Shown piece after piece: positions 8,325 through 60,655 of a stretch of DNA of 64,000 nucleotides. The stretch covers positions 1 to 64,000 of the IMG/VR virus record IMGVR_UViG_2724679538_000004. One strand, 5' to 3'. The translations under genes were made by a program, and so were the position numbers. This DNA comes from a virus. Its lineage: Duplodnaviria; Heunggongvirae; Uroviricota; Caudoviricetes. Below the pieces are notes generated by a model. The model made no database searches and was not told where the DNA came from. It saw nothing but the letters and a program-made list of their open reading frames with translations. How positions within the stretch are numbered: position 1 is the stretch's first letter; the number at the start of each line of letters is the position of its first letter.

Positions 8325-9143
8325 TCAGACTAATGCCGCGCTAATACTGCGTTCAGTCTTGCCCACTCCCACCTTCACAAAAGGGCTACCGTAGCTTGGT
8401 GGTTTCTTGATTAATTTTCCTACGTATAGTTCTCTAATATGTTCATCGGCTATTCTGCCAACAAATTCATAACGTTTGGTATCAGGGCTAAGAGCTATAT
8501 CTCGTGTAAAGTACTGCTGAGAACCGGCTTTGACCCAGCATTCTATCTGATAAACCTCCATTATTAGCCCACCATATGTAGCGTAGGCATATTTGAGATT
8601 CTCATCTCTGGGAACCTTTGCCCATACGCCACGCGTAGCTTCATATAATGCCAGAGCGGACATTCCTGACTTGTAGGTGCTGTTTAGCAGAAAGGCTAAT
8701 CCGGCGTGCTCAGGAGCAATTTCAGTTTCCTCTTGTAGAACTAAGTGATGGTAGGCATCCAGTGATATTCTTCCCATCAGGGAACCACTTCCTCGTACTT
8801 TATTAGTTAGTTCTCCAACCCCCATAAGATCAATGCATGTTGCCTCAACAAGTTTGGCTGTGCTTTCATCCATGCCATGACGAAGAATATCTATGCCTAA
8901 TTTCTTTTGCGCCAAAAGTTCTTTGATTCGTCTTGATTTAGGAGAATCATCGAGGTACTTGATGTGGTCAAGACAACGAGTCGATTTGCCTTTTCCTATG
9001 TAAAACGGTCTTTTCATCTTGTCTTCTGTATCATAGAGACAGTAAACATAGTATTTAGCCTTATCCAACGATTTCGCGTACACCGATAAATCGTACATTG
9101 TTTCGTCCCTTAGCAACTGAATAATGCGTTCTATTTTACACAT
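8325..9143 (-). CDS. GIY-YIG domain nuclease
   Basis: YYVYCLYD..(7)..PFYIGKGKSTR matches GIY-YIG core with conserved Arg and downstream Glu; C-terminal 160 aa unassigned. Confidence 0.55.
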   Translation of the reverse strand: MCKIERIIQLLRDETMYDLSVYAKSLDKAKYYVYCLYDTEDKMKRPFYIGKGKSTRCLDHIKYLDDSPKSRRIKELLAQKKLGIDILRHGMDESTAKLVEATCIDLMGVGELTNKVRGSGSLMGRISLDAYHHLVLQEETEIAPEHAGLAFLLNSTYKSGMSALALYEATRGVWAKVPRDENLKYAYATYGGLIMEVYQIECWVKAGSQQYFTRDIALSPDTKRYEFVGRIADEHIRELYVGKLIKKPPSYGSPFVKVGVGKTERSISAALV

Positions 9144-10149: not shown

Positions 10150-11490
10150 ATGACCGAACTTTGCCATACAGGACGCGGTTTGTCAGAGGAGTTTGACGAT
10201 GACTTCCAGAACAGACTTGCGGCTTATTATTGTCGCGATCATGAGTTCTTGACTCGTGCAGGAGACCTTGTAGCGCCTAATCAATTTGAAAATGCAGCCA
10301 ATGCCATACTGGTAAATATGGTTTCTGGCTATTACCGGATGTACAAAAGCGCACCGTCGTCTTCTGCAATTCTGGATATGCTTAAGCGTGCGAAACGCGA
10401 TAAGACCATCCGCGAAGAACTCTTCGCCGACGTTGTTGCGGCGTTTAAGCGCATCCTTGCAGAGAAGCTGTCTGATACCTCGTACATGGTTGACCAGGTA
10501 TCGACTTTTGCAAAAAGCGTGGCGTTTGATGAAGCTCTGATTAAGGCTGCTGAGCTGAAAGAAAAGGGTGACTTTCAGGGGGCTATGGCAATCATGGCTA
10601 AAGTTCAGCAGATCGGATCGAACGAAGCGACCGGAATCTATGATTATTACACCTCAGCAAGTGAGCGGTTGAAAGCACGTGAATATGAGGCTTCAGCGGA
10701 GTATGTGCCAAACAGCATTACTACTGGACTGCCGCTGCTTGACAGGTTGCTGTACCAAAAAGGCTGGGCAAAGCGAGAAATGGTCCTCTTCATGGGATTC
10801 GCTAAGTCCGGTAAATCGACCGCAATGGGTGAGTTTTCCATTAACGCAACGCTCGCAGGCCACAATGTTCTGTATCTTTCGCTGGAGGTTCACACCACCA
10901 TTTTAGCCGACCGTTTCGATGCGAGGTTGTCGGAAACTGAAATGTCCAAGCTGGTGGAACGGCGCGATGATGTTCATCGTAAGTTGGCAGAGTTGGGAGC
11001 CACAAAGGGGATTGGCAGCTTATGGGTTGTTGAACGCCCATCAGGAAGTATGTCACCGGCAGATTTGGACCGTATGCTTAACAGCATGAAAGCCAATGGC
11101 ATGGTGCCTGACATGGTTGTCGTCGACTACGCAGATCTGATGCGTGCCAGCTATGACCTGCGTGATGATCGCGCCAACATACGTAGTATCTATACCGATT
11201 TACGTGCGCTCTATGACAAGCATAACGTTGCTGGCATCACTGCGTCACAGACAAACCGTGAGGGTGGGGCGTCAGAAGTGGCTACTATGATGCACGCTGC
11301 TGATAACATTGAAAAAGTTCGTATTGCCGACCTTGTTATCACCATCAACAAAACAGAAGAGGAAGAAGCGAAAGGCGAAGCTCGTCTCTACTTTGCTGGT
11401 TCGCGTAACCAGCAAGGTGGCATCAGTATTCGCGTTAAGCAAAACCTTGAACAAATGCGCTTTATCGAGCGCATTATGGACGTCACCTAA
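10150..11490 (+). CDS. DnaB-like replicative DNA helicase
   Basis: Walker A GFAKSGKST, RecA-like C-terminal domain with arginine-finger region; RBS AAAGGAAAGCAC. Confidence 0.8.
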   Translation: MTELCHTGRGLSEEFDDDFQNRLAAYYCRDHEFLTRAGDLVAPNQFENAANAILVNMVSGYYRMYKSAPSSSAILDMLKRAKRDKTIREELFADVVAAFKRILAEKLSDTSYMVDQVSTFAKSVAFDEALIKAAELKEKGDFQGAMAIMAKVQQIGSNEATGIYDYYTSASERLKAREYEASAEYVPNSITTGLPLLDRLLYQKGWAKREMVLFMGFAKSGKSTAMGEFSINATLAGHNVLYLSLEVHTTILADRFDARLSETEMSKLVERRDDVHRKLAELGATKGIGSLWVVERPSGSMSPADLDRMLNSMKANGMVPDMVVVDYADLMRASYDLRDDRANIRSIYTDLRALYDKHNVAGITASQTNREGGASEVATMMHAADNIEKVRIADLVITINKTEEEEAKGEARLYFAGSRNQQGGISIRVKQNLEQMRFIERIMDVT

Positions 11491-11572: not shown

Positions 11573-12754
11573 ATGAGCCTCTATGTTATATCAACACCGA
11601 GGCTGGTCACAATATTGCCTGTTAAAAGTGAAATTGTCGTGAGTGAGCTGAGAGAACTTATTTCAGAACTGGATTTCGAACAGTGGTTAGATACTGAGGG
11701 CATTATCTATCGGCGTGGCGGTGTAAGTGCCAAAGGGCGTGAGGTAAATATTAAAGAGTGCCCTGTATGTGGAAGTACTAACTGGAAGGTTTATTTCAAT
11801 CTTAACAATGGGGTAGGTAAATGTTTTGCTGGCGACCATCCAGAAGAAATTCAGTTTAACAAGCTGGTATTCCTTAAGCACTACAGCGGTAAATCACGCA
11901 GAGACTTTGAGGAATATGTCCAGAACGCGCTGCTTTCGCAGGGATGGGCACCGAAGAAAGAAGAGATTGTACTTGTCAGCGAAGTCGAGTTAGAAGGACC
12001 AGTCGCTCTCCCTCGTCATTACGAACTTCCCATAGATGGTCGTTTGCCTGACTATTTGGTCGAACGCCACATTACACCAGAGATGGCACGGTACTTCGAT
12101 CTCCGATACTGCGTGGAAGGCAAACACGCTTATGTTGATCCCTATACAGATCAAGTGAAAGGTCAGGTATTTGATATGAGAATCCTGATACCTGTATACG
12201 ATCTAGATGGCGTGATGAAAACGTTTCAGGGGCGAGATATCACTGGAGAAGCTGAACGACGTTATCTATTCCCAATGCAATTACCAGCTTCCGGCAAATT
12301 CCTTTACAACGGCCACAATGCAGTAGGCAAACAGACTGTCGTTGTATGCGAAGGCGCATTCGACGTTATGGGCGTCAAACGTGCCATCTTTTCCGAAGAG
12401 ACTTTGCGCGAGTACGTAGAGCCAATTGGAACGTTCGGGATGCATTTATCTGGGACCACTACGCAAGATGCAGAAGACCAGCTTGGGGCATTCCTGACTT
12501 TAAAGGCGAGCGGATTACGTAATGTGATCATGATGTGGGACAGCGAAAAGCAAGCGATACGTAACACGATGTCTGCGGCAAGGCGGCTAACAAGCATTGG
12601 TCTGAATGTGAAAGTCGCCTGTCTTGGAGAAGAAGGACTCGACCCCGGCGATGCAACGCCGGAGCAGATCATCAAAGCCTACTATCGCGCCAAACCGTAT
12701 ACCAAACAGTTAGAACTGTTAAGCAAGATCAAAGGCATAGCGGCATTAGTTTGA
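11573..12754 (+). CDS. DNA primase (zinc ribbon + TOPRIM)
   Basis: CPVCGSTNW..CFAGDH zinc-binding motif; TOPRIM-like VVVCEGAFD and MMWDSEKQ; start chosen at ATG 11573 with conserved AAAAGAAAAACAC leader. Confidence 0.75.
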   Translation: MSLYVISTPRLVTILPVKSEIVVSELRELISELDFEQWLDTEGIIYRRGGVSAKGREVNIKECPVCGSTNWKVYFNLNNGVGKCFAGDHPEEIQFNKLVFLKHYSGKSRRDFEEYVQNALLSQGWAPKKEEIVLVSEVELEGPVALPRHYELPIDGRLPDYLVERHITPEMARYFDLRYCVEGKHAYVDPYTDQVKGQVFDMRILIPVYDLDGVMKTFQGRDITGEAERRYLFPMQLPASGKFLYNGHNAVGKQTVVVCEGAFDVMGVKRAIFSEETLREYVEPIGTFGMHLSGTTTQDAEDQLGAFLTLKASGLRNVIMMWDSEKQAIRNTMSAARRLTSIGLNVKVACLGEEGLDPGDATPEQIIKAYYRAKPYTKQLELLSKIKGIAALV

Positions 12755-13891
12755 AGTGGTGTCGGTCACGTACACATTGACCGAAAATGATTTAACCTCT
12801 GTTTTGAAATTATCCGTCATTACAGCAAGATAGGCATTCTTGGTATCTCTGAACTGTTTCAGGATGATTTGTACATTATCCGTGCAAACAAAAGAGGTGG
12901 CAAGATTGCCCCCTTTCTCTGAAAAATCTTTCAAAAATGTACAGTCGGCTTTGCCGCCATTGGCGGTAAAGGTGGCATCGTCTCCCTGCCAGATAAATGT
13001 TGCGTTAACGCCTTTATCAATAGATTTTGCAATGAGCCGCTGGGTGGCGGATTTTGCTTTAGGGTTTGCAGCTGGTGGTTGATATTTACCGCTTTCTTTC
13101 AGTTCCGCAATGTAATCACAGCCTTTTTTATCTTCTTTATCGCAAGCAGCCTGATAAAGCTCTGCTGCTTTTTTATAGTCCTTTTTAACACCCTCCCCAT
13201 TCTCATACATTATGCCAAGATTTGTCATGGCATCGGCGTTTCCGAGTTCAGCAGCTTTTTTATACCACTTAATTGCTTCGGCATCGTTGCGTTTAACACC
13301 TAAACCGTCATCGTATAAGGTGCCTAATGCGAACATGCCATCTGAACTACCTTGATCCGCCGCTTTTTTGTAATAAGTAAAAGCTTTTTTATAACTCTTT
13401 TGTACACCTTTACCATATTGGTAATACACACCAAGAAGGTAGCTAGCTTTAACATACCCGGCATCAGAGGCTAATTTGAAGTATTTAATGGCGAGCGCAT
13501 GATCTACTTTACCAAGCATCCCCTTTTGATAAATAGCACCAAGATTGTTGTAGGCTCTACCTTCACGAGCATCTCCCGCAAGTTTGTAGTACTCAACAGC
13601 TTTATTTAAGTCTTTATCTACACCCTCGCCAAATGTGTACATAACCCCAAGTGCATAATATGCTACTTTGTCTCCCTTTTCTGCAGCGAGATCAATCCAC
13701 TTCTTGGCCTCAACTACATCCTTATCAAAACCATTGATACCATCAAAATAATTTGTACCTAACTCACTTTGAGCTGCGGCATTTCCCGCGGTAGCGGCTT
13801 CTATCAGTGTTTGCTTATTGTCTGCGTTAGCGAATCCAGCACCAAAAAGTAAAGTTAATGCCAGCAACGATGATGGTTTTATGAATTTCAT
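12746..13891 (-). CDS. secreted Sel1-like repeat (SLR/TPR-like) protein
   Basis: Signal peptide MKFIKPSSLLALTLLFGAGFANA; at least five repeats of the type A.YYLG.MY..G.GV.KD...A..WYKKAA; opposite strand to neighbours. Confidence 0.75.
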   Translation of the reverse strand: MKFIKPSSLLALTLLFGAGFANADNKQTLIEAATAGNAAAQSELGTNYFDGINGFDKDVVEAKKWIDLAAEKGDKVAYYALGVMYTFGEGVDKDLNKAVEYYKLAGDAREGRAYNNLGAIYQKGMLGKVDHALAIKYFKLASDAGYVKASYLLGVYYQYGKGVQKSYKKAFTYYKKAADQGSSDGMFALGTLYDDGLGVKRNDAEAIKWYKKAAELGNADAMTNLGIMYENGEGVKKDYKKAAELYQAACDKEDKKGCDYIAELKESGKYQPPAANPKAKSATQRLIAKSIDKGVNATFIWQGDDATFTANGGKADCTFLKDFSEKGGNLATSFVCTDNVQIILKQFRDTKNAYLAVMTDNFKTEVKSFSVNVYVTDTTSN

Positions 13892-14123
13892 ATTTTTTGT
13901 TCTGTTGATATAGGATGAACAGTTTAGACGCGGCAAGCGTCAAGTTTGCGAAAAGAGTACTTAAATTTAGTTATTCTGTCAGCTTTGTTAATATAGTTTA
14001 TGGTTGGTAAAGTTAATAGATAACTAATAACTATAAGAAATAATGAGTTGTTCAATTATTGTGATACAACTCGTGTTTTGGTTAACTAATACCTACGATA
14101 AATATAAATTAAGGAAAGTCAAA

Positions 14124-14537
14124 ATGAGCCAAAATAAGCTGATTTTAACAGGGGCTTTATTGTCCTTGTTTGCTTTAGTTGGGTGTAAACCTACAGACGA
14201 GAAGGCTATTACTTTGGGCCAGCAGGCAATTGCGGATGATATGAAAGATCCCACATCAGTGATGTTTAGGAAAGATAAGTTTGTCAGGACTGATCATGAT
14301 GATGGTAGTGTTACCGGTTTTGTATGCGGTGAATTGAACGCAAAAAATGGCTTTGGTGCATACGTGGGCTATCACTCATATGTTGTTGAACTCGAGATGA
14401 AGCCAAAGGGCATGTTTTCAAAAGGGGTGGTATACAAAATCCTCTCGAAGTCATTGGCACCAAATGACCCTCATGATTTACAACGTTATAAGCAGATCTA
14501 CAGACAGATGTGCAATAGTGAGGCTGTAGCTCATTAA
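14124..14537 (+). CDS. small lipoprotein (possible superinfection-exclusion type)
   Basis: Signal peptide with lipobox LVGC; RBS AAGGAAA; 137 aa. Confidence 0.55.
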   Translation: MSQNKLILTGALLSLFALVGCKPTDEKAITLGQQAIADDMKDPTSVMFRKDKFVRTDHDDGSVTGFVCGELNAKNGFGAYVGYHSYVVELEMKPKGMFSKGVVYKILSKSLAPNDPHDLQRYKQIYRQMCNSEAVAH

Positions 14538-14600
14538 TTGGAATGCCGGGCATATCTTATGCCTGGCTTCTTCGCATAGGAAACTATTTCGCCTGGCTTT

Positions 14601-14620
14601 ATAAGTAGATACTTACTTAC
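14601..14620. repeat. motif A copy
   Basis: ATAAGTAGATACTTACTTAC. Confidence 0.6.
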
Positions 14621-14661
14621 AAATCTGTAAGAATACTATCAGCTGTTAGTCAGGAGTTGGT

Positions 14662-15444
14662 ATGAAAGACGAATTTCAGAAATTAGCCTGCGATATCATC
14701 GATAAGTCCTGTGTGAAAATCGACGATGGTGCTCGTGCAGATATTATGAATAGCGCAGTCAAGGTGGCAATGAATCATATCGCTACTCGTATGGAGGAGA
14801 TCCCGCAGCCAGGATTGCCTTACATGAAGGTCCAATTACATGTTTGGGGACAGTCTTCTGGTTTGCCACGTTCTGCGTTGGCTGTGTTTATTAGCAAAGC
14901 AGACGCTAGTTCGCTTAAAACTCAGATAGGGGTATGGTTTGAAGGCAAAGTCATCTATACAAGTACCATGTTTTGTTATCAGAGCGACGAACACATTGAG
15001 GAGGCTATTCAGGAATCAATCCACAAGATGCGCAAAATGGCTGTGCTGGAACAGAATTCCAACTATGAAGAGTTCTTGCAGTCGATAAAAGAAGAAAAAA
15101 ATCTCGAACTAAAAGCCGATTTCGTTACTCCAGCAAAACTGTTGGATATTTTGATTAATCAGGGCGTTAACGATGCCTTAATTCATCTCAGAGAGACGGC
15201 ATATGGAACCCTTTGCGACATGTGCCGGAGCCAGACGGATCTCGTTAGTATCGTTGTTGACACGGGAAAGGCTTGTGATGGTGCTATGGTGAACTTTGCA
15301 GGCAAGGTAGTTAGACTGGCTAACGAATTGCCTATGATAAAGCAAGAGACCAAATCATACGTTACCAATCACGTTAAAGAGCTGCTTGAACCTTATCGAT
15401 TTGAAAGCGATCAAAACAAGATGATCGCTTGGGGAACCTGGTAA
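14662..15444 (+). CDS. hypothetical protein
   Basis: 260-aa ORF with AGGAG RBS; followed by terminator. Confidence 0.5.
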   Translation: MKDEFQKLACDIIDKSCVKIDDGARADIMNSAVKVAMNHIATRMEEIPQPGLPYMKVQLHVWGQSSGLPRSALAVFISKADASSLKTQIGVWFEGKVIYTSTMFCYQSDEHIEEAIQESIHKMRKMAVLEQNSNYEEFLQSIKEEKNLELKADFVTPAKLLDILINQGVNDALIHLRETAYGTLCDMCRSQTDLVSIVVDTGKACDGAMVNFAGKVVRLANELPMIKQETKSYVTNHVKELLEPYRFESDQNKMIAWGTW

Positions 15445-15460
15445 GTATCCATTCTCACTC

Positions 15461-15486
15461 AAAAGCCCTTTCGGGCTTTTTTTGAA
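15461..15486 (+). terminator. rho-independent terminator
   Basis: AAAAGCCC-ttt-CGGGCTTTTTTTG. Confidence 0.7.
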
Positions 15487-15494
15487 ACGAATTT

Positions 15495-15510
15495 CGTAAG
15501 TAAGTACAAG
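15495..15510. repeat. motif A copy (partial)
   Basis: CGTAAGTAAGTACAAG. Confidence 0.5.
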
Positions 15511-15522
15511 ATTATTTTTACT

Positions 15523-15984
15523 ATGGGCGAGAGAATAAAACTATCAAAAATCCCTTCAATTTCAGGCAATAATGGTTATTCGCTTCGTTGCAAAGAGGTA
15601 CAGATAAACGGCAATGACGCGTACTGTAGTTACACAGTCTGCCAGCACACCATTTTGGCATACAAAGAAAATCGCCTTCCTGCCCATTCTTTTAAGTCAT
15701 GTGCAACTGCCATTAAAGCAGGCAAATGCAGTGCGCTCAAAATGATGGTGGAGGAGATTCGTAAGGCGGAATCTATTTATTTTATTGATATGACCGGGCT
15801 GATCCGGGAGGTAGAAAACACCAACAAAAACAAAGCTGCGATCATCCGTAAACGTGACACCGTAACCATTAGCAAGCTGGTTAAGCGTTCTCTAAAGACT
15901 GATGCTGGAACGCCGGAATCTCAAGCGCCGATCTCAGATGTTTATTCGGCGCTCATGGAAGAAGTAACAAAAGAAAACACATGA
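15523..15984 (+). CDS. hypothetical Cys-rich protein
   Basis: 153-aa ORF, several Cys in N-terminal half. Confidence 0.4.
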   Translation: MGERIKLSKIPSISGNNGYSLRCKEVQINGNDAYCSYTVCQHTILAYKENRLPAHSFKSCATAIKAGKCSALKMMVEEIRKAESIYFIDMTGLIREVENTNKNKAAIIRKRDTVTISKLVKRSLKTDAGTPESQAPISDVYSALMEEVTKENT

Positions 15985-16012
15985 ATACCGATCAACCTGT
16001 GGAGGTAAAACA

Positions 16013-17335
16013 ATGGAAAAGTTGATCGCTCTTAAGCACAAACTAGATGAGATGAAGCCAATGGGCACTAACGCCAAGAAAGAGGCGTTGGCCAGTTTGG
16101 ATGACTTTGAGCAGAGCATGGTCTCGCTAATGCTAAACCCATTCATTCGATTCGGTGTGAAGAAGTACAAAGTGGCCGAGCCTCTCGATACTTCCGTACC
16201 TGGCGACCAGAATGTAGTAGAGCTGCTGGAGAAGCTGGCCGCACGCGAACTGACCGGAAACGCGGCCATTACTGCTGTCGAATCACTCGTTGCCTTAATG
16301 TGCGCTGACGGGCAGGACGTGTTTCGTCGCTTCCTGCTGAAAGATCCGAAAGCCGGTGTTGGCATTAGTCTTTGCAACAAGGTTTTTAAAAATCCAATTC
16401 CCAAGTTCGAGGTCCAACTGGCGTCTCCGTATAAGGAGAAAGGCGACAAATACCCATTCAAACCAAATCCAAAGGCTAAGTGGCCGATGATTGGCAGTCT
16501 TAAGCTCGATGGTTTGCGAGTAATTTGTGAGGTTATTGTTGACGAGGAAGAGGTTAACTTCCTTTCTCGTACCGGTAATCCAATTACGTCTCTCGATCAC
16601 CTTAAGCCAGCCATGCTCGAATTAGGCAAACTTTCAGGCCACAAACACATCTTCTTCGATGGTGAAGGAACAGCAGGTTCATTTAACCAGTCCGTATCTG
16701 CATTGCGTAAGAAGAACGTGCAGGCAATTGGCGCAATTTATCATGTTTTCGACTTCTTCCTGCCGGAATGGCGAACACAGGCTAAATCTAAAGAGTATGC
16801 GAAGACAGGTATGAAGCTGAAAGAGCGCCTGGCTATGTTAGTGGCGTTGTTCAAAAACGATCGCAACGAAGTTTACGCACAAGACATACACCTACATCCG
16901 TTCTACATCATCCATAGCCACGAAGACTTCATCGAACGCTTCATGAAACGCCTGGACGATAACGAAGAAGGGGAGATGGGTAAAGATCCGAACTCTGTTT
17001 ACGAGTTTAAACGTACCCGCAGCTGGTGGAAGTTAAAAGACGAAGATTCAGAAGATGGTGAAATTATCGATTTTGAGCCGGGCGACCCGGACTCTGGTTT
17101 TGCCAACACGCTCGGAAAAATTGTTATTCGTCTTGAAAACGGTGTGATTGTTCGTGCAAGCGGCATTAAGCATAAATATCTGGACGAGATCTGGAACAAC
17201 AAAGAGAAGTACCGCGGTCGTATTGTCGAAGTTCATTGTCACGAGAAAACGCCGGATGGCAGCTTACGCCACCCGCGACTTAAATGGCCGCGTTGCTTAC
17301 GCGATACCGAGGACCGAATTGGGGATAAAGAATGA
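16013..17335 (+). CDS. ATP-dependent DNA ligase
   Basis: Adenylation motif I KLDGLR (GSLKLDGLRVI); GGAGG RBS. Confidence 0.75.
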   Translation: MEKLIALKHKLDEMKPMGTNAKKEALASLDDFEQSMVSLMLNPFIRFGVKKYKVAEPLDTSVPGDQNVVELLEKLAARELTGNAAITAVESLVALMCADGQDVFRRFLLKDPKAGVGISLCNKVFKNPIPKFEVQLASPYKEKGDKYPFKPNPKAKWPMIGSLKLDGLRVICEVIVDEEEVNFLSRTGNPITSLDHLKPAMLELGKLSGHKHIFFDGEGTAGSFNQSVSALRKKNVQAIGAIYHVFDFFLPEWRTQAKSKEYAKTGMKLKERLAMLVALFKNDRNEVYAQDIHLHPFYIIHSHEDFIERFMKRLDDNEEGEMGKDPNSVYEFKRTRSWWKLKDEDSEDGEIIDFEPGDPDSGFANTLGKIVIRLENGVIVRASGIKHKYLDEIWNNKEKYRGRIVEVHCHEKTPDGSLRHPRLKWPRCLRDTEDRIGDKE

Positions 17336-17859: not shown

Positions 17860-18161
17860 GCAATCTAACTTCTTGGGAATGGTGGCTGGTAAGCTATTTT
17901 GTGGCTGCCGGAGTCGGATTTGCCTTTTACGTAGGTCTGTTAGTCGTAAAACTACTACTGATTAGATTTGCTAGTCATAAACGTATTGACGATGGTCTGT
18001 GGCGTCTGGGGTCTCTTGTTGAGATTCACTACGGCCAACTTAAGGAGAACGAAACTATCACTATACAAGCGAAACGATTTACCGCCACAATCACGAGGAC
18101 TCCTGATCAGAAAGGCGCTTTGATCAAAAAAGTTGCAACTAAAACTCTTGCTGAAAAATAA
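17856..18161 (+). CDS. membrane protein
   Basis: 101 aa, ATGA overlap; TM segment WWLVSYFVAAGVGFAFYVGLLVV. Confidence 0.5.
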   Translation: MSNLTSWEWWLVSYFVAAGVGFAFYVGLLVVKLLLIRFASHKRIDDGLWRLGSLVEIHYGQLKENETITIQAKRFTATITRTPDQKGALIKKVATKTLAEK

Positions 18162-18178
18162 GTATTTACTTACTTATT
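18157..18178. repeat. motif A copy
   Basis: AATAAGTATTTACTTACTTATT overlapping stop codon. Confidence 0.6.
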
Positions 18179-18922: not shown

Positions 18923-18997
18923 GATGGTGTAGCTCAGCGGTAGAGCAGTTGGCTGTTAACCAACTGGTCGGTGGTTCGAATCCACCCACCATCGCCA
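18923..18997 (+). tRNA. tRNA-Asn (anticodon GTT)
   Basis: Hand-folded cloverleaf: acceptor GATGGTG/CACCATC, D-stem GCTC/GAGC, anticodon loop CTGTTAA, T-arm GGTGG-TTCGAAT-CCACC, encoded CCA. Confidence 0.85.
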
Positions 18998-19002
18998 ATT
19001 TA

Positions 19003-19089
19003 GGGGAGTTAGTCCGTAGAGGTAGCGGTGTAGACTGTAAATCTACTGTCATTGCGACTCGGGTGGTTCGACTCCATCACTCCCCACCA
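19003..19089 (+). tRNA. tRNA-Tyr (anticodon GTA), long variable arm
   Basis: Acceptor GGGGAGT/ACTCCCC, anticodon arm GTAGA-CTGTAAA-TCTAC, T-loop GGTTCGACTCC, encoded CCA. Confidence 0.75.
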
Positions 19090-19093
19090 AATT

Positions 19094-19169
19094 GCCGGTT
19101 TAGCTCAGTTGGTAGAGCAGTCGCTTTGTAAGCGAATGGCCAGCGGTTCAAGTCCGTTAACCGGCACCA
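19094..19169 (+). tRNA. tRNA-Thr (anticodon TGT)
   Basis: Acceptor GCCGGTT/AACCGGC, D-arm TAGCTCAGTTGGTAGAGC, anticodon loop TTTGTAA, T-loop TTCAAGT, encoded CCA. Confidence 0.75.
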
Positions 19170-44035: not shown

Positions 44036-44057
44036 ATAGGTATATACTTACTTATAA
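44036..44057. repeat. motif A copy
   Basis: AATAGGTATATACTTACTTATA. Confidence 0.6.
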
Positions 44058-48700: not shown

Positions 48701-48720
48701 ATAGGTAAGTACTTATCTAT
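48701..48720. repeat. motif A copy
   Basis: ATAGGTAAGTACTTATCTAT. Confidence 0.75.
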
Positions 48721-48765
48721 TAACATGGGCCACTACATTTAGTGGCCCTTTTTATTTGGTGATAC

Positions 48766-60044: not shown

Positions 60045-60641
60045 ATGACGACGAAGACACCAGCCCGATCGCAAGCAAAAACTCTCAAAAAAGCCAAAAA
60101 CAAAAATTCTCCCCGCACCAATCACACAACGCCTGTCGTAGAGTTCAATCCCCAGCTTAAAACCGTGAAAATCTTTAGTGATGGCTCTTGCCTTAAAAAT
60201 CCGGGTGGTCCTGGCGGTTACGGTATCGTTCTCCAGTATCGTGGTGAGGAACGCGAGTTCTCAGATGGTTTTCATAGCACCACTAATAACCGCATGGAGA
60301 TGATGGGCGCACTCATCGGGCTGGAGCGTTTGAAATATCCATGCAACGTTATTTTGTACTCTGATAGCCAGTATCTGAAAAACGGCATGACACAGTGGAT
60401 GAAATGGTGGAAACGAAATGGATGGATGACTTCTGATAAAAAACCGGTAAAGAATGTTGATCTGTGGAAGCGTCTGGATGAGGCCGCAAGTCGACATAAT
60501 GTTCGCTGGAAGTGGGTTAAAGGCCATGCGGGACATCGTGAAAACGAGATCTGTGATCGTCTTGCTAAGATTGCAGCATTCACTGCCGCTGATACTCCAT
60601 TTAAAAAAGATTTAGGTTTTTTGAATCAAAATAGTAAGTAA
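60045..60641 (+). CDS. rnhA: ribonuclease H (RNase HI)
   Basis: [41 protein letters not shown] motifs; N-terminal basic extension; start set at ATG 60045 after CAGGAG. Confidence 0.85.
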
Positions 60642-60655
60642 GTATTTACCTATTA
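60630..60655. repeat. motif A copy
   Basis: AATAGTAAGTAAGTATTTACCTATTA overlapping RNase H stop. Confidence 0.65.

Follow-up and report, generated by a model that had tools for sequence, protein, structure and literature searches.

The stretch of DNA analysed in this study (the window, 64,000 nucleotides) covers positions 1 to 64,000 of the IMG/VR virus record IMGVR_UViG_2724679538_000004, and its replication module carries a cargo hotspot at the junction between a DnaG/Toprim primase gene and an open reading frame (ORF) designated ORF260. The cargo found here extends only from position 12746 to approximately 14600 and consists of two genes, one for a Sel1-repeat protein and one for a small lipoprotein. 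Both genes fit the description of a phage moron: conserved genes flank them, and close relatives can lack them cleanly. No prior description of this hotspot, or of its Sel1 and lipoprotein cargo, was found in the literature. A sequence-only reading made earlier had proposed a moron cluster of four genes between the primase and ligase genes; all four ORFs are indeed located there, with Pfam matches on the flanking genes, and the proposal stands for the Sel1 and lipoprotein genes, which are low in GC content and absent from backbones that are 98–99% identical, but not for ORF260 and ORF153, which are syntenic (76/88 loci).

The region from 9 to 20 kb of the window matches Escherichia phage CMS-2020a, Cyrano (the pLF82 phage-plasmid) and Salmonella phage SSU5 with 80–85% nucleotide identity, and it also matches around 200 non-mobilizable plasmids of 105–125 kb from Escherichia, Enterobacter, Citrobacter, Shigella, Salmonella and Klebsiella. 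On the evidence of these matches, the window is assigned to an SSU5-like phage-plasmid.

Occupancy of the hotspot in related elements

The junction was compared across 88 loci, comprising those of Cyrano and SSU5 and a further 86 that were fetched with the primase as bait, with all six proteins mapped in each. The survey was drawn mainly from IMG/VR, and a scan of genome contigs contributed 6 loci. In Cyrano the primase gene is followed by a 260-aa ORF, a 160-aa ORF and the ligase gene, without an insert, and SSU5 has another gene, of 321 aa and on the minus strand, at the site between primase and ORF260.

Among the 76 loci that possess ORF260, the distance from the end of the primase gene to the start of ORF260 falls into discrete classes. 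The junction is empty in 33 loci (82–84 nt), and seven have a gap of 127–294 nt without any ORF of at least 45 aa. A lipoprotein homologue stands alone in nine (580–601 nt; 57–62% identity), a Sel1 homologue stands alone in five (1214 or 1435 nt), and nine have both genes (1913–2015 nt), one of these with a frameshifted lipoprotein gene. The remaining classes hold an SSU5_041-like gene (1224–1241 nt, eight loci) or a DUF4145 protein or one of two membrane proteins (969–1516 nt, five loci). ORF260 was absent within the 7-kb flank in 12 loci, four of which are truncated contigs. It is the discrete gap classes with their differing content that identify the junction as a cargo hotspot.

Very similar elements can differ in their cargo. 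With identity averaged over the helicase, primase and ligase, the closest pair in which one locus has both genes and the other is empty shares 98.4%, the closest pair of both genes against Sel1 only shares 99.2%, and the closest pair of empty against lipoprotein only shares 98.8%. The idea of an obligate Sel1–lipoprotein pair was rejected, since each gene is found alone at the hotspot. In one locus (L028, 9553–9967) the lipoprotein gene is frameshifted into ORFs of 88 and 63 aa beside an intact Sel1 gene, and the lipoprotein therefore appears dispensable for the element.

The presence and absence of these genes also bears on the notion that the whole set of four belongs to the core of the replication module and cooperates with the primase and ligase, which is extremely improbable: their position and the synteny of ORF260 and ORF153 would agree with it, but the Sel1 and lipoprotein genes are missing from the 33 relatives with an 82–84 nt junction, including those with 98–99% identical backbones, and their export signals rule out a cytoplasmic role on DNA. 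Conservation as core genes in relatives, which the sequence-only reading had named as the observation that would speak against cargo, was thus found for ORF260 and ORF153 as conserved backbone, and not for the other two.

The cassette is present in 58 of the 204 matching plasmids in PLSDB and in 59 of 5,426 complete E. coli genomes, on a plasmid in every case. The backbone ligase occurs in 247 of the same E. coli genomes (∼4.5%), which suggests that approximately a quarter of E. coli SSU5-like elements (59/247) carry the cassette. The sources of the carriers are humans, poultry, cattle, pigs, dogs, gulls, soil and rivers, and no bias towards any pathotype is seen. No database copy of the cassette exceeds 92% identity to that of the window, which is therefore considered a new allele.

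Borders, composition and control elements of the insert

On the left, homology to the empty sites stops at around 12727–12738, within the last codons of the primase gene, and the stop codon of the Sel1 gene (TAA, 12746–12748) is the reverse complement of the penultimate, Leu codon of the primase. The last ∼10 primase codons co-vary with the Sel1 cargo, encoding ...LLSK[VI]KGIAAL[VL] at Sel1 loci and ...LQSKVLGIKAL at empty loci. On the right, homology to the empty sites returns at around 14601, at the palindrome TAAGTAGATACTTACTTA followed by TGTAAGAAT, both of which stand directly upstream of ORF260 in every relative, regardless of cargo.

The related motif TAAGTAGATnnnTACTTA has nine strand-matches against an expectation of 0.2, and occurs at six intergenic sites at operon starts in the window (14602–14619, 18159–18176, 21503–21520, 44037–44054, 48706–48723 and 60635–60652). 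Each copy has an AT-rich, −10-like stretch within ∼5–12 nt after it, for example TGTAAGAAT or TGTATAAGAT. The motif is probably a phage-specific promoter or operator, and the copy at 14602–14619 a putative promoter/operator-like element of the unit formed by ORF260, ORF153 and the ligase gene. Because the right edge of the insert meets an element that recurs at operon starts, the cargo can be placed at an operon boundary.

The cassette differs in composition from the surrounding genome, as expected of a moron, with a GC content of 40.1% against 45.1% for the window and 46.8–47.5% for the primase and ligase genes; that of the intergenic region between the two divergent cargo genes is as low as 28.4%. 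When alleles are compared, ∼110 nt beside the Sel1 start and ∼70 nt beside the lipoprotein start of this 232-bp region are nearly invariant and the centre is variable. After the lipoprotein gene, near the right end of the insert, there is a hairpin with a 10-bp stem followed by UUCUUCG, which is terminator-like and would close the lipoprotein transcription unit. An Rfam scan of 12500–16100 returned only matches at chance level.

Moron status is assigned to the Sel1 and lipoprotein genes on account of their patchy presence, their lower GC content, their own AT-rich putative control region and terminator-like hairpin, and the occurrence of homologues at moron sites of other phages. Synonymous divergence (dS) from relatives is 0.13–0.41 for the Sel1 repeats and the lipoprotein gene, compared with 0.6–1.6 for the backbone and 1.1 for the Sel1 C-terminal domain.

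ORF260 and ORF153, conserved genes of the backbone

ORF260 and ORF153 follow each other in this order between the primase and ligase genes in 76 of the 88 loci, whatever the cargo, and are fast-evolving but conserved backbone genes rather than cargo. Amino acid identity across relatives is 31–64% for ORF260, against ∼90% for the primase and ligase, and 51–72% for ORF153, the N-terminal half of which is Cys-rich; the ligase itself shows 73–97% identity in relatives, with matches over its full length. Ratios of nonsynonymous to synonymous divergence (dN/dS) are 0.22–0.35 for ORF260 and 0.14–0.42 for ORF153, compared with 0.00–0.11 for the flanking enzymes. Both match PHROGs of unknown function (phrog_4248 and phrog_5055, respectively), and neither has a match in Pfam, NCBIfam, PADLOC or PDB. 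Residues 133–176 of ORF260 give a weak helical-repeat (PPR-like) signal. ORF260 may determine specificity or host interaction in the replication module.

The Sel1-repeat protein

The product of the first cargo gene belongs to the Sel1 repeat family, with six repeats (Pfam PF08238, E = 9.6e-54, 178.4 bits against a cut-off of 30.7), and matches phrog_8741 over its full length. That it is a secreted Sel1-repeat protein encoded on the opposite strand, as had been proposed, agrees with these repeats and with a Sec signal peptide read from its N-terminus, MKFIKPSSLLALTLLFGAGFANA, with an A-x-A cleavage site followed by DN. With this signal, and no Cys, the protein is predicted to be periplasmic and soluble and not a lipoprotein. 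The TTG start at 13936, which would give a longer version of the gene, has no counterpart in use among homologues.

PDB matches are to generic Sel1 proteins and end at approximately residue 268 (6ok3, 4bwr (EsiB, E = 4.5e-64), 1ouv and 1klx (both Hcp), and 5jkp). The matches in NCBIfam were to Sel1 look-alikes only (MerG, AlgK, MotX and ExoR), all far below the cut-offs, and the PADLOC match to PtuA (E = 1.8e-5), in which no single stretch passed, is a repeat artefact. The solenoid has, as read from its sequence, only one Cys pair, against one per repeat in the Hcp proteins. Beyond the solenoid, the C-terminal domain has two invariant cysteines; profile searches revealed no Pfam (E ≤ 0.01) or PDB relative of it, and a tblastn search against 50,697 phage records gave no match. 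A word-indexed protein search found few homologues of either this domain or the lipoprotein, and an exhaustive search of representatives was used instead.

Sel1 alleles come in lengths of 345, 381 and 417 aa, each step being exactly one 36-residue repeat. Their identity to the protein of the window is 55–98% in the repeat region and 71–93% in the C-terminal domain. Between alleles, dN/dS is 0.07–0.16 for the repeats and mostly 0.03–0.09 for the C-terminal domain, with 0.27 in one nearly identical pair; these low ratios indicate that the gene is functional and under no gene-wide positive selection. The two parts of the gene have separate histories. Between the window and one locus (L031), dS is 0.13 in the repeats and 1.10 in the C-terminal domain, and among three others (L017, L009 and L026) the C-terminal domain is nearly identical (dS 0.05–0.15) and the repeats are very different (dS > 1.5). 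This mosaic suggests that solenoids have been swapped onto a conserved C-terminal domain, with a recombination breakpoint within the gene. As an explanation of the variability of the solenoid, gene-wide positive selection was considered and rejected (omega ∼0.1), with allele swapping at the solenoid/C-terminal breakpoint being the better account.

The same architecture of Sel1 repeats and C-terminal domain is found elsewhere after the tail-fibre genes of a lambdoid prophage, in a chromosomal homologue among orphan CdiA-CT modules in Pseudenterobacter, and at a Pantoea locus of unrelated, uninformative context.

The lipoprotein

The second cargo gene has an AAGGAA Shine-Dalgarno sequence 8 nt upstream of its start. 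The N-terminus of its product, MSQNKLILTGALLSLFALVG followed by C, contains the lipobox L-V-G-C (MSQNKLILTGALLSLFA-LVGC) with Lys at position +2, so that the small lipoprotein proposed earlier at this position is upheld, and the protein has the predicted signal peptide and lipobox of an Lgt/LspA substrate. Under the Lol +2 rule, the Lys at +2 predicts sorting to the outer membrane.

An exhaustive HMMER search (E ≤ 1e-3) places the lipoprotein in a family that comprises at least 1,280 clusters, counted by representatives at 50% identity. Close homologues keep the lipobox, as do 100 of the 154 family members sampled; of the others listed, most show a cleavable signal peptide or are anchored at the N-terminus, and a few are truncated fragments. 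The domain of this family therefore appears to be extracytoplasmic. In the alignment D42, G69, N75, G78, Y80 and G82 are invariant, P43, S45, F48, C68, N72, K74 and C130 are near-invariant, and Cys pairs are conserved. The lipoprotein carries the invariant polar motif D-P-x-S ... C-G-x-x-N-x-K-N-x-x-G-x-Y-x-G. Between alleles, dN/dS is 0.03–0.15, and the two cargo genes alike (0.03–0.16) show purifying selection.

No Pfam domain other than the lipid-attachment site was found in family members, and PDB sequence and profile searches with the lipoprotein and with the family profile gave no meaningful match. PADLOC likewise returned nothing for the lipoprotein. The AlphaFold2 (AF2) model is confident, with a predicted local distance difference test (pLDDT) of 90.9, and comprises a helix, a four-stranded antiparallel sheet and a C-terminal helix, for which the predicted fold is cystatin/NTF2-like. 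Longer relatives have C-terminal SPOR or SH3_3 peptidoglycan-binding domains. For both the lipoprotein and the Sel1 C-terminal domain, Pfam gave no match at E ≤ 0.01 to the lysozyme-inhibitor families Ivy, MliC/PliC, PliG and PliI, and the sole remaining likeness to periplasmic lysozyme inhibitors is that the domain is found either lipid-anchored or soluble.

Homologues of the lipoprotein gene are located between ogr and int in the P2-like phage SEN5, after Ogr_Delta in Enterobacter, and beside the tape-measure gene in lambdoid prophages. Others are carried by temperate phages of Pseudomonas, Acinetobacter and Paracoccus, and by chromosomal loci.

A possible role in protection of the lysogen envelope

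Sel1 solenoids serve as scaffolds for protein binding, and domains of the cystatin type usually act as tight-binding inhibitors. The reading preferred here is that the gap from the primase stop codon to the promoter/operator of the ORF260 unit acts as an operon-boundary hotspot, where accessory genes are apparently exchanged by homologous recombination in the flanks, and that in the window it holds two independent, divergently transcribed moron genes, each for an exported protein. One product would be a periplasmic protein in which a variable Sel1 solenoid provides a protein-binding surface beside a conserved, disulfide-containing, all-beta C-terminal domain of ∼90 residues, and the other a lipoprotein anchored in the outer membrane, with a cystatin/NTF2-like domain and an invariant polar motif. 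Both genes would be expressed in the plasmid-prophage state from the AT-rich region between them, and both proteins may act as stoichiometric periplasmic binders or inhibitors, directed at cell-wall penetration by superinfecting phages or at periplasm-acting toxins, and would not serve the phage's own replication or assembly.

This reading is held with moderate confidence as a whole, that is, with the protective mechanism included. Its parts differ in strength: that concerning the cargo and the hotspot is very likely correct, while it is a tentative proposal, and one that may well prove wrong, that both proteins are expressed from the plasmid-prophage and protect the lysogen envelope in the periplasm. 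This proposal draws on the lipoprotein homologues in the P2 ogr–int slot and in lambdoid tail-gene clusters, the fusion of family members to cell-wall-binding domains, and the precedent of Sel1-like proteins that serve as immunity proteins of type VI secretion systems (T6SS), as known for PA5087 and Klebsiella Sel1E (PMC7108748).

Several observations weigh against it. The strong conservation of the lipoprotein motif would fit a universal ligand better than a phage-specific receptor, and is thus no specific sign of defence. The model of the Sel1 C-terminal domain is of low confidence (pLDDT 58.6), and neither a T6SS effector nor vgrG was found beside homologues with this architecture in the contexts examined. 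In the divergent region, sigma-70 promoter candidates at 13991→13964 (−) and 14017–14044 (+) are at consensus level, but the total of the scan is not above the shuffled expectation.

An orphan immunity protein is the alternative that survives best, although it is unlikely. On this account the Sel1 protein, and possibly the lipoprotein too, would counter periplasm-acting T6SS, contact-dependent inhibition (CDI) or colicin-type toxins and give the lysogen a competitive edge. PA5087 (PDB 5jkp) and Klebsiella Sel1E are proven immunity proteins, the latter combining a Sel1-like repeat (SLR) domain with a C-terminal extension that has no assignment (PMC7108748); the PDB matches of the Sel1 protein include 5jkp, one chromosomal homologue stands among orphan CdiA-CT modules, and a variable solenoid is joined to a conserved anchor domain. 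The protein of the window shares an exported Sel1 solenoid with the Sel1-like immunity proteins of P. aeruginosa (PA5086–5088) and K. pneumoniae (Sel1E), being likened to Sel1E by the published description of the latter. It differs from them in that no effector gene neighbours it in the contexts examined, and its C-terminal domain is a conserved module predicted to be all-beta. Furthermore, no examined homologue adjoins vgrG or an effector gene, the similarity to 5jkp is weaker than that to many generic Sel1 proteins, CdiI proteins are normally cytoplasmic, and dN/dS gives no sign of gene-wide positive selection.

It is rather improbable that the lipoprotein is a receptor-masking superinfection-exclusion factor in the manner of T5 Llp or phi80/N15 Cor. 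Such a factor would sit in the inner leaflet of the outer membrane, bind the protein that its own phage uses as receptor and lock it shut. The lipoprotein resembles Llp and Cor as a small phage lipoprotein with a predicted anchor in the outer membrane and a predicted orientation towards the periplasm, and it is found at moron sites of temperate phages, but it is about twice their size, cystatin/NTF2-like and without sequence relationship to them. An hmmscan against all 38,880 PHROGs matched only seven families, all of them 'unknown function', with no Llp, Cor, Bor or annotated exclusion PHROG among them. No receptor-binding or tail-fibre gene stands beside the lipoprotein gene, which lies in the replication module between the primase and ligase genes and directly after the primase gene in relatives. 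A universal target is the better fit for a very broad family with an invariant motif that extends to phages of Pseudomonas, Acinetobacter and Paracoccus and to chromosomal loci, some members of which are fused to SPOR or SH3 cell-wall-binding domains. The receptor of SSU5 is the lipopolysaccharide (LPS) core. For Llp and FhuA, the paradigm of receptor masking is described as established in the available text of PMC9586334.

The sequence-only reading had also noted that Sel1-repeat proteins are host-interaction factors in several pathogens, and a host-interaction or virulence role on the animal host, comparable to that of E. coli EsiB, Legionella LpnE/EnhC or Helicobacter Hcp, would agree with the strong repeat-level matches to EsiB and Hcp and with the chaperone-usher fimbrial operon at the hotspot of one sampled relative. 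This role is very doubtful for the protein of the window. The likeness to generic Sel1 proteins (EsiB c5321, HcpA-C, LpnE, AlgK, MotX and ExoR) lies in the six canonical repeats, with their generic Sel1 consensus, and the C-terminal domain is absent from those proteins; the solenoid has one Cys pair where Hcp proteins have one per repeat, the Sec signal peptide leaves no evident route past the periplasm, and carriers come from many sources without pathotype bias.

Relation to other phage morons and wider significance

With the morons of lambdoid and HK97-type phages and of the P2 ogr–att 'TO' region, the cassette shares its patchy presence and lower GC content, and it has a putative control region and a terminator-like hairpin of its own, and lipoprotein homologues occupy the SEN5 ogr–int slot and lambdoid slots by the tape-measure gene. 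Unlike those morons, the cargo lies in the replication module of a phage-plasmid and not in late or tail regions, and it is apparently exchanged by homologous recombination, with one breakpoint within the Sel1 gene.

Phage-plasmids are described as pairing conserved phage genes with variable accessory genes in the available text of two accounts (Pfeifer et al., 2021, PMC7969092; 10.1101/2025.09.12.675607), and the window resembles the SSU5-group elements described there in having a conserved backbone and variable genes; the primase/ORF260 hotspot itself is absent from the same portions. The 2025 SSU5-group survey (10.1101/2025.09.12.675607), in its available text, makes no mention of the hotspot or of Sel1 and lipoprotein cargo, and no literature that links Sel1, prophage and moron was found. 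As the variable accessory content of phage-plasmids is already well known, going by what is accessible of PMC7969092, the feature is of an ordinary kind.

The precise hotspot, from the primase stop codon to the conserved ORF260 promoter, is nevertheless a place to survey for conversion genes, and relatives bear fimbriae and Fic toxins at the same site. The lipoprotein family, which is large, uncharacterised and found again and again on phages, is together with the Sel1 C-terminal domain the only part with real potential for discovery. If envelope protection is true, it would add to the short list of periplasmic exclusion mechanisms, and if not, the cassette would be an ordinary example of accessory cargo. 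A more speculative suggestion, which is unlikely to be true, is that through the lipoprotein a large and so far unnamed family of periplasmic proteins of cystatin/NTF2-like fold, carried repeatedly at the cargo sites of several kinds of temperate phage, may have come to notice for the first time. The invariant DPxS...CGxxNxKNxxGxYxG surface of the lipoprotein might bind a universal cell-wall component or a wall-remodelling enzyme. The protein would then represent an envelope-level factor of a new class, for exclusion or for protection from lysis, and the Sel1 protein might operate alongside it as a second binder in the periplasm, one whose solenoid can be swapped.

Features of the locus and other observations

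The features of the replication module that concern the hotspot are collected in Table 1.

Table 1. Coordinates of the hotspot, its cargo and the flanking genes in the window.
Feature	Position	Strand	Basis or remark
DnaB-like helicase	10150–11490		Pfam
DnaG/Toprim primase, left flank of hotspot	11573–12754	+	Pfam Toprim_2, DNAG_N
Sel1-repeat gene (cargo 1), 381 aa	12746–13891	−	Pfam Sel1
Sel1 protein, conserved all-beta C-terminal domain (predicted)	12749–13018		Residues ∼292–381
Sel1 protein, solenoid	13082–13822		Residues ∼24–270
Sel1 protein, predicted signal peptide	13823–13891		Residues 1–23
AT-rich divergent intergenic region	13892–14123		Presumed promoters and 5' untranslated regions of both cargo genes
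Lipoprotein gene (cargo 2), 137 aa, mature 117 aa	14124–14537	+
Terminator-like hairpin	14545–14574	+	RNA fold
Conserved palindrome, right border of hotspot	14602–14619	+
ORF260, backbone	14662–15444	+	phrog_4248; 76/88 loci
ORF153, backbone	15523–15984	+	phrog_5055; synteny
ATP-dependent DNA ligase, right-hand backbone gene	16013–17335	+	Pfam DNA_ligase_A_M, E = 5e-13

Other cargo was seen at the site in several of the loci. One locus (L043, 8319–14867), sampled from the eight untruncated loci without ORF260 within 7 kb of the primase, has after the primase a Fic/Doc gene, a complete chaperone-usher fimbrial operon (an adhesin-like Fimbrial protein, PapC usher and PapD chaperone) and an insertion sequence (IS) transposase. 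A cargo protein of 345–350 aa that matches no family is encoded in two loci (L002, 6567–7604, SSU5_041; L037, 3545–4597), and others encode a 239-aa Cys-rich protein with DUF4145 (L041, 8231–8950), a 384-aa protein with N-terminal transmembrane segments (L081, 8202–9356) and a 388-aa protein with C-terminal transmembrane segments (L085, 2673–3839). PADLOC gave zero matches to five of these alternative cargo proteins.

Just upstream of the replication module, at 8325–9143 on the minus strand, there is a gene with a LEM-3-like GIY-YIG nuclease domain (Pfam). At its position Cyrano has a RelE/ParE toxin and a hypothetical protein, among others, and SSU5 has a DUF2971 gene; this position is possibly a further variable slot. 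A cluster of tRNA genes (Asn-GTT, Tyr-GTA, Thr-TGT and Ser-TGA) lies downstream of the ligase operon, at 18923–19902, and parts of it share 89–93% identity with the tRNA regions of coliphages, P1-like ones among them.

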